From positions 1 to 54,462 of the forward strand of contig CAZOYD010000019.1 in NCBI GenBank assembly GCA_964583985.1: 54,462 bases of DNA. Direction: 5' to 3'. The notes beneath the pieces were generated by a model, which was not told the DNA's origin, did no database searches, and was given only the letters and a program-made list of their open reading frames with translations. Below are positions 36,087 through 48,680 of the stretch, piece by piece. A program made the position numbers and the translations under genes. The stretch's first letter is position 1. Each line of letters begins with the position of its first letter. The DNA comes from an uncultured archaeon (GTDB lineage Archaea; Asgardarchaeota; Lokiarchaeia; Sigyniarchaeales; SOKP01).

Positions 36087-36171
36087 TGCGGGAAGAGGGA
36101 TTTGAACCCCCGAACTCCTACGAGACTGGATTCTAAGTCCAGCGCCTTTAACCAGACTTGGCAATTCCCGC
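36087..36171 (-). tRNA. tRNA-Leu (TAG), intronless
   Basis: GCGGGAA/TTCCCGC acceptor, CTGGA-CTTAGAA-TCCAG, long variable arm. Confidence 0.95.
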
Positions 36172-42885: not shown

Positions 42886-42986
42886 TGGACCTGACGGGAA
42901 TTGAACCCGTGACCTCTTGAGTGCAAGTTTCGCCTATTAAGTTATACACTTAAGAATCAAGCGATCTGCTACTGATCTACAGGCCC
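42886..42986 (-). tRNA. tRNA-Ala (TGC) with an intron at about 30/31 (42929-42957)
   Basis: GGGCCTG/CAGGTCC with G3:U70, TGC at 42923-42925, CGCT/GGCG BHB helix. Confidence 0.9.
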
Positions 42987-43114: not shown

Positions 43115-44605
<1,491 letters not shown>

Positions 44606-44945
44606 AAAATTGGAATCTGTCACAAACGGCTTTAAAACTTTTAAAAATTATTACATTATTTTTTTTGGGAGTTATTAATTATTCTTTCTTCAGTTATAAT
44701 CTTTAAAATTATAACTACATTTTTTATATCACATCAATGACGCAACTCTTCATTTAACGGAACTTTGCCGTAATCCAAGCTCACACCGGTAATGATGTGA
44801 TTCGTTATATTTCTATAAAGAAGAGATTCATTTTAAATTTTGCCATTTTTTCGCAGTATAGGGTTTTAGTTTTTAATTTTCGTAGTTTAAAAACTTACTT
44901 AATAAATCAGTATTACAAATTTAATGATTGAACAGGAAGATAAAA

Positions 44946-45947
44946 ATGGAATTAAAAGAAAAGATATGTATTCACTTAGATCAAATTAAGCAACTTAAAG
45001 GTGTTGAAAATGCTGTTCTGACTCAACGAGATGGTAATCCCATTCAATCAGCAGGTGTCTGGTTTTCTAAAGATGAAATTTTTAATGTTAGTTCTGCCGC
45101 AAGTGCTATTTTCAATGTAGGAATTCACCTCCATCCTAATGATCTGAAATATATATTGATAGAAGGTAAAAAAGCAAAGATATTGATTGCTCCCTTAAAT
45201 AGTCCATTACACCATTCATTGAACAAAATATTAGAACAACAAGGTATATTTGATAACAAACATGAATATTTCATCGCTATTACAGCTCAACCTAATACAA
45301 ATCTTGGAGGAATTTTTTTACAAACTAATGAATGTTTGAAAAAAATTAAGACCACTCTTATAACCTCAGGAGAATCATTTAAACCACCTTTAGTACAATT
45401 TAATGAAGAGAAAATTCAAGATATTATTCGTGGTTTTGATGTTAAAGAAAATGCAGGTTTTGATATGCAAGTCAACTCCTTTTCACTTAGCTTATCTGAA
45501 TACATCTCTGTAGAGTTAAGAAAAATACTTAATAACTTTTCAGTTGCTGTTCCTGATATGTCACATGCTTATATCACACTTGAAGGAGGATTCATCGCAT
45601 CACAGATTTTAAATAGAAGAAATCTGTTTTATAATAATTTAGATAATATTTCTGCAATGAGCTATTCGTTATTTCAAACAGCAAATCGTTGTGCGTGGCT
45701 CTTAAAGAAGATGAATGCCGAAACAATCTTATTAGATTGTGAAAATACTTTTCAATTCATCTATGGTCTTGGAAACGCAATTTTTAGCACTGAAATTGGG
45801 AAAGCAAGACAAAAATTAGGTTTAATTAGATTGATACTCCCACAATTCTCAAAAAAAATCAGTTATCTCATTAAGGAAGCTTCTCAAATTCAAGATCATA
45901 AATCATTCGATATTAAATCATTATTAGGAGAGCTGGTAATTAAGTAA
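44946..45947 (+). CDS. Tandem roadblock/LC7 (MglB-like) domain protein
   Basis: GVENAVLTQRDGNPI...VSSAASAI...ILIEG; second repeat AYITLEGGFIAS...ISAMSYSL. Confidence 0.8.
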   Translation: MELKEKICIHLDQIKQLKGVENAVLTQRDGNPIQSAGVWFSKDEIFNVSSAASAIFNVGIHLHPNDLKYILIEGKKAKILIAPLNSPLHHSLNKILEQQGIFDNKHEYFIAITAQPNTNLGGIFLQTNECLKKIKTTLITSGESFKPPLVQFNEEKIQDIIRGFDVKENAGFDMQVNSFSLSLSEYISVELRKILNNFSVAVPDMSHAYITLEGGFIASQILNRRNLFYNNLDNISAMSYSLFQTANRCAWLLKKMNAETILLDCENTFQFIYGLGNAIFSTEIGKARQKLGLIRLILPQFSKKISYLIKEASQIQDHKSFDIKSLLGELVIK

Positions 45948-45961
45948 AACAAGGTGACTAT

Positions 45962-46858
45962 ATGGATTTTTTTAATGTGTTAGAAGATTTAAAGAAATCA
46001 GATTCATCATTAATTTTTTATTGTTTATTGAATCGAATTCCTATAATTATAACTGGAGAGGATTCAGAAATAATCGATAATTATTTAATCGATCTATCGG
46101 AATTGATGCATTTTCGAAAAGAGATTGTTTTTTATACTGATTTTATTTCAAATTCAGAATATCAGGAGCTTTTACAAAATGAAGCAATTGATTATAACTC
46201 TCAAAGGACTCAAATAAGGTCTTCTTGCGATGTATCTGGTAAATCTTTGATAGAAATTGATCAATTTAATTCATGGATCATAGGTTTTGAACTTGAAAAT
46301 AATAAGCTTAAACTCGAGAATTTTATAAAATTTATAAAAGAAAAAGTAAATGTTTTCTTGAATATTATGATTTACTCAAAATCCATATCAATAATTACGA
46401 TAGGATTAGATTTAAAACAATTAGATCTTACATTTGAGCAAAATATATTACAAAAAATTTCTCGAGACACGGAAAAATCTATAGTAAAAATGAAAAGAGT
46501 TCTTTTAGAGAAAACTAAACCTGAGAAACTTGATAAAGACCTTATAAAAACTTTACTCGACTTTGAGGTTGAAAAGAAAGAATTAAAGAAAAATATTTTA
46601 AAAAATGAAATACAAAAATTCTATTCCGGTTCTAAGAGAGCCTTTTTTATCTTATCAAAACTTAATTTATTAAATAGTTTTGAGATGAATGTGCGAATAG
46701 GAAGCAAATCGCTACTAGAAATAATTGATTATGATGAAGCTTCAATCGGAAGAATGGTTTCTTTTATAGAAAAGGAATGGGGAGAGGATTTTTCAGATTT
46801 ATTTGAAAATGGAAAAAAAGTTAATGCATTAGATAGTATGCAATCATTGTGGGGTTAG
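45962..46858 (+). CDS. Hypothetical protein, DENN-core-like
   Basis: IFYCLLNRIPIIITGED..I...L..L..L and SWIIGF resemble cDENN motifs; lies between roadblock and GTPase genes. Confidence 0.5.
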   Translation: MDFFNVLEDLKKSDSSLIFYCLLNRIPIIITGEDSEIIDNYLIDLSELMHFRKEIVFYTDFISNSEYQELLQNEAIDYNSQRTQIRSSCDVSGKSLIEIDQFNSWIIGFELENNKLKLENFIKFIKEKVNVFLNIMIYSKSISIITIGLDLKQLDLTFEQNILQKISRDTEKSIVKMKRVLLEKTKPEKLDKDLIKTLLDFEVEKKELKKNILKNEIQKFYSGSKRAFFILSKLNLLNSFEMNVRIGSKSLLEIIDYDEASIGRMVSFIEKEWGEDFSDLFENGKKVNALDSMQSLWG

Positions 46859-46866
46859 TGATAAAA

Positions 46867-47457
46867 ATGATATATGACTTTGAAAATAAGACATTACAAG
46901 TAAAAATTGTTTATTATGGTCCAGCGATGTCAGGCAAAACCACGACTATTAAACATTTATTTTCACATTTTAGTAGAGAGAATGAATTAGAATCGATTGA
47001 TAGCTCAGTTGGGAGAACGCTATTTTTTGATTTTGGAGTTTTAAATTTTCGAGGGGCTGAATGGGGATTAAAATTTTTAATTTATTCTGCTACGGGCCAA
47101 GATTTCTATGCTAGTACTCGCCCAGCAACACTTAATGGAGTTGATGGGATAATATTTGTTGTTGATTCTCGAACGATTTGTTTAAAGCATAACCTAAGAT
47201 CATGGAAAGAATTAAATACTATGCTTGGTTCGGAGTTTTTCAATATACCGATGGTAATATCCATGAATAAATATGATATAAATGATGATATTATTATGAA
47301 TGAAACCGATTTTAAAGATCATATAGATATCGACGCGTTTAAAAATGTGTCCGTTCAAAAAACAGCGGCTATTAGGGGATACGGGATAATTGAATCATTT
47401 AATCAAATGATTAAATTTATTTTTCCTCAATTGACCTTAAATATGAACACAAATTAA
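46867..47457 (+). CDS. MglA-like small GTPase
   Basis: KIVYYGPAMSGKTT, RTLFFDF, Y.ATGQ.FY..TR, GVDGIIFVVDS, NKYD. Confidence 0.9.
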   Translation: MIYDFENKTLQVKIVYYGPAMSGKTTTIKHLFSHFSRENELESIDSSVGRTLFFDFGVLNFRGAEWGLKFLIYSATGQDFYASTRPATLNGVDGIIFVVDSRTICLKHNLRSWKELNTMLGSEFFNIPMVISMNKYDINDDIIMNETDFKDHIDIDAFKNVSVQKTAAIRGYGIIESFNQMIKFIFPQLTLNMNTN

Positions 47458-47458
47458 A

Positions 47459-47641
47459 TTATTTTTCAATTTTTTGGTACATATTTTTAGAAATTCGTTT
47501 TATATAACCTTGTTTATAAAATTGCTTTAATAAATTCCTTACTTTCCGAACTTCTTGCGCATCGATTCCTAGAGCATCCATTAATTGGAAAATCGAAAAT
47601 TGGTTAGTTAATTCATTCTTGACGGTATTATAAGTTCCCAA
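47459..47641 (-). CDS. Small winged-helix-like protein
   Basis: FSIFQLMDALG...VRNLLKQFYKQGYIKRISKNMY. Confidence 0.65.
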   Translation of the reverse strand: MGTYNTVKNELTNQFSIFQLMDALGIDAQEVRKVRNLLKQFYKQGYIKRISKNMYQKIEK

Positions 47642-47924: not shown

Positions 47925-48680
47925 TCAAAACTTAGGGCTCTCTTTCCTAAAACTATCTCCTATAGGTGCTTTTCCATCTCCATATATTTGATATAGCCCG
48001 ATTCTCCTTGCACATTCACTAAAACTGCGATAAACCTCTCTTTGTTTATCATATAATGCACAAGATTTATATATTATCGGATTCCATGTAGATAATTCAT
48101 GATCTGGATTGTACCATAACTTTTCTTCCTTTAATATTTGCTTAAAATCTTCTTCTCCAATTACTTCGTTTAAATCCTGTTTATTTAACATTATAACGAG
48201 AGGAATTTGTTTAATTAATCTGCACTCTGGAGATTTTCTTCCCCCGTATTGCGAAACTCCAGATAATTTCTGATCATTTAGCTCCTTTTCTTCTACGAAT
48301 GTGGTAACTTTTTTCAATTCTTTAAGTGATTCAATATTGTCTTCAAAAAAGTGAGTTTGAGAATCAACAACGAATATCACTCCATCAGTTCCTTTAAAAA
48401 TTCGTTCTCTCAAAGGGGAAAATCGACTTTGTCCGGCTACAGTATATACATGATAAAAAACCTTGTTTTGTTTAGTAGATTGAAAAAATCCTCGATCAAA
48501 ATATAATGTAGAACCACTAGCCATACAAATTTTTTTTAATTCTGCAACAGGAGTTATATCTTTATCTTGTTCTCTTGTGAGTCTATATAATGTATCTACG
48601 ATTGTTGTTTTCCCTGATCCTCCCATACCCCAGTAGAGGATTTTAATGTATATCTTATGATCTGGCAGAAATCTAACCAT
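47925..48680 (-). CDS. MglA/Arf-like small GTPase with an internal insertion
   Basis: KILYWGMGGSGKTT, TLYFD, YTVAGQ, GTDGVIFVVDS, NKQD, SCA. Confidence 0.88.
   Translation of the reverse strand: MVRFLPDHKIYIKILYWGMGGSGKTTIVDTLYRLTREQDKDITPVAELKKICMASGSTLYFDRGFFQSTKQNKVFYHVYTVAGQSRFSPLRERIFKGTDGVIFVVDSQTHFFEDNIESLKELKKVTTFVEEKELNDQKLSGVSQYGGRKSPECRLIKQIPLVIMLNKQDLNEVIGEEDFKQILKEEKLWYNPDHELSTWNPIIYKSCALYDKQREVYRSFSECARRIGLYQIYGDGKAPIGDSFRKESPKF

Follow-up and report, generated by a model that had tools for sequence, protein, structure and literature searches.

A conserved Asgard archaeal operon encoding a tandem roadblock protein, a predicted DENN-fold protein and an MglA-type small GTPase

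In this article, I discuss three genes that lie side by side at positions 44,946 to 47,457 of a 54,462-nucleotide (nt) stretch of DNA from an uncultured Asgard (Lokiarchaeial) archaeon (contig CAZOYD010000019.1 of NCBI GenBank assembly GCA_964583985.1; the whole stretch is called the window, and all positions are counted along its forward strand). The 3.8-Mb assembly has the window as its contig 19, and the G+C content of this DNA is low (~29%). The trio encodes, in this order, a tandem roadblock protein, a stand-alone protein with a predicted DENN fold and a small GTPase resembling the MglA proteins of bacteria, as follows:

44946-45947, + strand: gene 1, tandem roadblock (two MglB-like domains) protein of 333 amino acids (aa), called from its open reading frame (ORF), Pfam, an AlphaFold2 (AF2) model, VIA-align and a family profile
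45962-46858, + strand: gene 2, stand-alone protein of 298 aa with a predicted DENN fold, called from an AF2 model and VIA-align
46867-47457, + strand: gene 3, MglA group-1-like small GTPase of 196 aa, called from the ranking of its PDB relatives and from its motifs

In eukaryotes, membrane traffic and nutrient signalling rest on the partnership between a DENN protein, a roadblock or longin protein and a small GTPase, and an archaeal operon that spells out the same elements as three separate small proteins is a tractable system for studying how such regulators functioned before eukaryotes. Genes 1 and 2 are separated by 14 nt, which carry a GGTGA Shine-Dalgarno-like motif before the ATG of gene 2, and gene 3 follows either after a gap of 8 nt, if it starts at ATG 46867, or with a 10-nt overlap with gene 2, if it starts at GTG 46849 and is 202 aa long; the ATG is the more likely start because most orthologues begin at that position. 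Similarly, gene 1 has an alternative TTG start at 44928, and its orthologues favour ATG 44946. The close packing of three co-oriented genes had been pointed out in an earlier note on this DNA, made from its letters without database searches, and it holds. Each of the three proteins has hundreds of intact full-length homologues, found in metagenome-assembled genomes (MAGs) labelled Lokiarchaeota/Promethearchaeota and in other Asgard groups, and these are therefore real genes and not chance ORFs.

The GTPase and the tandem roadblock protein

Among solved structures, the best relatives of gene 3 are the MglA proteins of Thermus thermophilus (E 7e-26) and Myxococcus xanthus (E 3e-24), with Arf1 (E 4e-7) and a Thorarchaeota Rab (E 2.5e-4) far behind, and a Rab-like or Rag-like identity was rejected on this ranking. 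Gene 3 also has no match to Pfam Gtr1_RagA, and its 196 aa form a single domain from which the C-terminal roadblock fusion of Rag-type GTPases is absent. In 16 orthologues from several families, the motifs GPAMSGKT, GRT(L/M)F(F/C)D, (S/T)ATGQ and NKxD are invariant, and the Arg of the GRT motif, adjacent to the G2 Thr, aligns with Arg53 of both T. thermophilus and M. xanthus MglA. Group 1 MglA proteins have been described as carrying an intrinsic Arg next to the G2 Thr and a TVPGQ sequence at G3, the Arg being missing from groups 2-5 (Wuichet and Sogaard-Andersen, 2014), and it is because the intrinsic Arg of gene 3 aligns that I call it group-1-like by these criteria. Its own G3 motif keeps the hydroxyl residue in place of Asp as well as the Gln, but has Ala-Thr where TVPGQ has Val-Pro. 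A further MglA trait is the genomic coupling of the GTPase to a roadblock gene. Related loci were collected by a pattern scan built on the GTPase alignment, with one genome per species, and in 77 of the best 80 of the 443 loci so retrieved both genes sit in the same operon. On its sequence, gene 3 is an MglA group-1-like GTPase with its own putative arginine finger and catalytic Gln, much as the earlier note had suggested when it singled out an MglA-type GTPase with an intrinsic Arg and a GQ motif. MglA-type GTPases have been reported earlier in Asgard genomes; through the one described here, the operon is tied directly to the MglAB switch of bacteria.

Gene 1 is built from two domains, at approximately residues 1-142 and 181-314, followed by a short conserved C-terminal helix at ~323-330. 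Pfam Robl_LC7 matches the N half only (residues 11-86, E 2e-7), and the AF2 model (25-row alignment; predicted local distance difference test, pLDDT, 79.7; predicted template modelling score, pTM, 0.80) contains the alpha-beta-beta-alpha-beta-beta-beta-alpha pattern twice, at residues 3-140 and 185-313. The models were compared with known structures by exhaustive VIA-align searches, and Foldseek was also run against the PDB. The N half (1-142) aligned with M. xanthus MglB over 121 aa (Z 13.0, root-mean-square deviation, rmsd, 1.9) and with Streptomyces and MK-D1 roadblock proteins (Z 13.4 and 13.3, respectively), the C half (181-314) aligned with T. thermophilus MglB over 130 aa (Z 12.3, rmsd 1.8) and with p14/MP1 (Z 9.6), and Foldseek was concordant with these roadblock matches. 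The family profile gave a similar picture at the level of sequence, since its N half found a Thorarchaeota roadblock protein (E 3e-7), its C half found MK-D1 Roadblock3, CvnB5 and MglB (E 3e-8 to 4e-3, with Roadblock3 at 3e-8 and MglB at 3e-3), and the two halves align in register to each other (hhalign E 1.3e-4, 118 columns). Both the Roadblock/LC7/MglB fold and a family-level sequence match are thus present in gene 1, and the model and the profiles together identify it as a predicted single-chain pseudo-dimer of two MglB-like roadblock domains, in keeping with the fused double roadblock that had been proposed from the letters of the sequence.

The fold of the middle protein

The database homologues of gene 2 are all named 'hypothetical', and the window protein has no match in Pfam. 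Its AF2 model, made from a 46-row alignment, is confident (pLDDT 90.6, pTM 0.86) and begins with strand-helix units at residues 28-126, in which strands at 28-32, 53-57, 83-87 and 105-110 alternate with helices, continues with a hairpin at 132-147 and ends in long helices at 157-273. This is the succession of a three-layer alpha/beta sandwich, built around a parallel sheet of ~5 strands, and an all-helical dDENN part that characterizes the DENN fold, with the cDENN alpha/beta domain at approximately residues 1-150 and the helical dDENN at ~155-275. When the model was compared with 48,161 PDB representatives using VIA-align, the best six structural matches were all DENN proteins and each spanned residues ~1-275, the top matches being two FLCN entries, the FLCN C-terminal domain 3v42_B (Z 12.9, rmsd 3.6, 186 aa) and 6nzd_H (Z 12.7), followed by DENND10 (Z 11.8), SMCR8 (Z 11.1), C9orf72 (Z 10.6) and DENND1A (Z 9.9). 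A longin/uDENN domain is not present in gene 2, as the first elements of the chain are already the cDENN helix and strand; longer, fused relatives were looked for and did not turn up, although this is weak evidence, and nothing informative came from Pfam when ten divergent homologues and eight longer ones were scanned. The model thus identifies gene 2 as a predicted DENN-fold protein that consists of cDENN plus dDENN and does without a longin domain. The DENN call for the middle gene, made by eye in the earlier note, survives this comparison, and the structural check that was proposed along with it came out divided between the two programs, VIA-align placing both FLCN and C9orf72 among the top six and Foldseek finding no DENN structure.

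Several observations weigh against the DENN assignment. Foldseek searches of the PDB with the gene 2 model gave nothing at E <= 1e-3 and no DENN structures, the weak top rows being P-loop ATPase domains, so that the DENN relationship surfaced only in the exhaustive VIA-align search, and in sequence the gene 2 protein does not match any DENN family significantly, in Pfam in particular. Also, the structures that come next after the DENN proteins in VIA-align are secretion and archaellum ATPases (Z 9.7-8.4). One could argue on these grounds that gene 2 is not a DENN homologue at all, but an alpha/beta domain of degenerate, P-loop-NTPase-like character (GspE/FlaI/RecA type) that carries a helical tail and whose likeness to DENN proteins is convergent. 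I consider this very unlikely, since DENN proteins occupy all six top places and cover the alpha/beta and the helical parts alike, whereas the ATPases cover at most residues 1-220, and since strand 1 is not followed by a Walker A motif, the sequence there reading PIIITGEDSE. The core topology of DENN domains is itself minimally P-loop-NTPase-like (Zhang et al., 2012), which accounts for the secondary ATPase matches, and three of 46 gene 2 homologues do show weak, sub-cut-off matches to Pfam Folliculin_C (best E 4.8e-4). Ferritin-type matches, obtained when the gene 2 family profile was compared with PDB sequences, fall on a Lys/Glu-rich helical stretch and were judged spurious.

A Folliculin_C search of 120 Asgard genomes, in which all matches were sub-threshold, brought up only ORFs of ~330 aa in two Asgard families that are without the gene 2 family (E 1e-4 to 9e-3). 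Examples are G026:C1:769767-769934 and G074:C1:869242-869409, with six others (L037-L041), and the gene 2 profile weakly matches one of these ORFs, at E 1.5e-5 in a search of small size. They do not adjoin a tandem roadblock gene and were set aside as a paralogous or more distant DENN-like family that is not part of the operon.

Inheritance and proposed function of the trio

With the gene 2 profile, matches were obtained in 110 of the 200 genomes sampled from the phylum; for high-quality genomes the figure is 64 of 85, and the family is near-universal in some Asgard families and nil in others. At 14 of 15 loci from other Asgard families, with 23-49% identity for gene 2, the order roadblock-DENN-GTPase is kept on one strand, the exception being a divergent paralogue. 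The full ordered trio was likewise recovered at 77 of the 80 best loci even though these had been retrieved via the GTPase alone; the remaining three are a locus truncated at a contig end, a GTPase on its own and L109, which is without the DENN gene. The earlier note had staked its proposal on the three genes being conserved together, and they are: the trio has been inherited as a unit across several Asgard families. That the genes should be mere neighbours without a shared function is hardly credible when their order and orientation have outlasted this degree of sequence divergence, and the packing of the genes also suits translational coupling.

The same assembly contains a second copy of the block on its contig 45 (locus L036:392-4125 in G000), comprising the trio and, downstream of it, a 60-aa ORF and a second GTPase gene that are described below. 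The proteins of this copy are 85-94% identical to those of the window, its contig begins ~390 nt upstream of gene 1, and the contamination estimate for the assembly is 5.25%; the copy represents a genuine duplication that goes with a second rRNA locus, or else the product of two co-binned strains. Furthermore, three loci (L042, L101 and L111) carry the archaeal operon, with 60-91% GTPase identity, in MAGs labelled as bacterial, namely Candidatus Nanopelagicaceae SMAG_U14091 (two contigs) and Patescibacteria AMOR_Bin_1762 (one contig), and these records are probably mis-binned or mislabelled.

What might such a conserved operon do? The account that I find fairly probable, by analogy with known systems, is that the trio makes up a self-contained nucleotide switch, in which the roadblock protein would serve as GTPase-activating protein (GAP) as well as platform and the DENN protein as a modulator. 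MglB is a roadblock-dimer GAP and guanine nucleotide exchange factor (GEF), and one dimer binds one MglA and activates the Arg and Gln of MglA itself; it is this precedent that suggests the platform and GAP role for gene 1. The tandem roadblock protein would bind one GTPase, chain for chain (1:1), as the MglB homodimer binds MglA asymmetrically (2:1), and would position the GTPase's own Arg and Gln to stimulate hydrolysis. Following the precedents among DENN proteins, the gene 2 product would then counteract or modulate this activity, nucleotide exchange as in DENND1-Rab35 being the most likely means. The two regulators may also act jointly and assemble a roadblock/longin plus DENN module from separate chains, with the roadblock protein replacing the missing longin domain.

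There are, however, findings that count against this division of labour. In FLCN-FNIP2 and C9orf72-SMCR8, the catalytic element, a GAP element, belongs to the longin domain, the role of the DENN domains being mainly dimerisation, so that a DENN fold alone does not imply GEF activity. In addition, at the locus L109 (L109:1653-3348, from a Promethearchaeota MAG) 25 nt separate a tandem roadblock gene from the GTPase gene that follows it, and a DENN gene is missing between them; it is a two-gene MglB2-MglA form of the module, and the DENN protein is thus dispensable in at least one lineage. The roles could be swapped or otherwise split, with the tandem roadblock protein serving as GEF or platform, either in the manner of the roadblock/longin heterodimers of Ragulator, Mon1-Ccz1 and TRAPP or via an MglB-like C-terminal helix, and the DENN protein serving as scaffold, effector or GAP cofactor. 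The gene 1 model does also match Mon1/Ccz1 and LAMTOR chains, gene 1 has a conserved short C-terminal helix, MglB itself has dual GAP and GEF activity, and the DENN domains of FLCN and SMCR8 are not the catalytic element, all of which would fit such an exchange of roles. I nevertheless regard it as unlikely, if still a serious competitor, because the intrinsic Arg and the Gln of the GTPase are of the MglA type, and in MglA these residues are activated by a roadblock dimer acting as GAP. A three-chain complex prediction, run with the proteins' own alignments and with the DENN protein as partner, scored 0.00 and 0.28 against a mark of 0.32; it gave no verdict and was not used in favour of either the roadblock GAP or the swapped arrangement.

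The trio can be compared with known systems of bacteria and eukaryotes. Like MglA-MglB of M. xanthus and T. thermophilus, it combines a GTPase having the P-loop, the Arg beside the G2 Thr, the hydroxyl in place of Asp in G3 and the Gln with a regulator of roadblock fold encoded in the same operon; unlike them, it has its roadblocks fused in one chain and mutually diverged, a DENN-fold gene in between, (S/T)ATGQ instead of TVPGQ, and an archaeal host. With FLCN-FNIP/Rag-Ragulator and C9orf72-SMCR8 it shares the company of roadblock/longin, DENN and small GTPase, and the C-terminal domain of FLCN is the best match of gene 2, but here the DENN protein lacks a longin domain and the GTPase is single-domain, MglA-type and without the Rag/Gtr C-terminal roadblock. 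There is also no FNIP-like second DENN protein in the operon, and no membrane anchor of the LAMTOR1 type was identified in it. Similarly, gene 2 has the cDENN plus dDENN architecture of the DENND1-type Rab GEFs (uDENN-cDENN-dDENN; DENND1A, Z 9.9) and is without their uDENN/longin part, a separate gene encoding a roadblock pair instead.

Comparative genomics has already brought the module and the analogy to folliculin to light. Liu et al. (bioRxiv 10.1101/2020.10.19.343400; Nature 2021) describe a roadblock/small GTPase/DENN operon 'conserved in most Asgard archaea', state that its GTPase is not a Rag and propose a folliculin-like GEF. By its gene content, the trio in the window appears to be that operon: the three gene products, the wide Asgard conservation and the hypothesis of a folliculin-like regulator agree, and the differences are that the GTPase is called Rab-like there and is closest to MglA group 1 here, and that the first protein is called LAMTOR1-like there and is a fused MglB-like pair here. 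Later papers list DENN domains among Asgard eukaryote-like proteins, and no experimental study of the trio was found in the literature. In MK-D1, small GTPase genes generally lie outside operons with roadblock genes (Tran et al., 2024), which makes the trio an exception deserving attention. What is added here is that the GTPase is MglA-type and not Rab-like, that the roadblock protein is a fused pseudo-dimer and that operon and 16S rRNA gene stand back-to-back in Lokiarchaeales. What is left to gain is biochemical: the assignment of the GAP and the GEF role to individual proteins, and the stoichiometry.

The neighbourhood in Lokiarchaeales

The sequences that flank the trio in the window contain the following features:

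43116-44604, - strand: archaeal 16S rRNA gene
44886-44893, + strand: candidate archaeal TATA box TTTAAAAA, read from the sequence, ~53 nt upstream of the gene 1 ATG
44934-44939, + strand: AGGAAG Shine-Dalgarno-like motif, read from the sequence
47459-47641, - strand: 60-aa ORF, possibly winged-helix-like, with weak Pfam hints (MCM_C winged helix-turn-helix, 0.048; AbiEi_4, 0.15)
47925-48680, - strand: second MglA-like GTPase of 251 aa, convergent to the trio, with M. xanthus MglA as its best PDB match (E 1.6e-15)

The Lokiarchaeales have the 16S rRNA gene and the operon arranged back-to-back, the 5' end of the 16S gene falling ~340 nt upstream of gene 1, and this arrangement was found in 11 of 11 checked loci of the order (L028, L043, L044, L047, L053, L054, L062, L070, L083, L085 and L092). 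The adjacency was not seen at five other loci scanned (four from other Asgard families, plus L116), and contig breaks inside the 16S gene, just upstream of the operon, are common. High conservation marks a block at ~44680-44810, probably the 5' leader of the pre-16S, and the block TTTTCGTAGTTTAAAAA is conserved across four Lokiarchaeial loci; the candidate TATA box would act as the promoter element of the operon, judging from its sequence.

The second MglA-like GTPase differs from gene 3 in its GSTLYFD motif, with a Ser at the position of the intrinsic Arg, and it has TVAGQ and an insert of ~35 aa before NKxD. An orthologue with GSTLYFD is encoded on the opposite strand at 72 of the 80 best loci and always has the Ser. 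It accompanies the trio only in Lokiarchaeales and is absent beside the trio in other Asgard families, standing outside the core trio, and it could be a further client of the same regulators. The 60-aa ORF lies 1 nt beyond the stop of the gene 3 GTPase on the other strand, has a homologue at 76 of the 80 best loci and is conserved beside the trio in Lokiarchaeales.

A more ambitious idea is that the trio would be the living unfused precursor state of the eukaryotic longin-DENN regulators, in which an MglB-type roadblock pair and a DENN domain work from separate chains on an MglA-type GTPase. The back-to-back transcription with 16S and the flanking Arg-less MglA paralogue in Lokiarchaeales would then suggest a growth- or nutrient-linked switch, its expression being coupled to ribosome synthesis. 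I hold this to be improbable; if it were true, the operon would be a prokaryotic counterpart of the folliculin-Rag logic, beyond shared folds.

The window also contains a TFIIB-like gene. As there is no 23S rRNA gene after the 16S gene in the window, the two rRNA genes appear to be unlinked here. Finally, two tRNA matches on the - strand, at 42886-42986 and 36087-36171, are 101 and 85 nt long, respectively, and because they exceed the length of a plain tRNA both probably contain introns.

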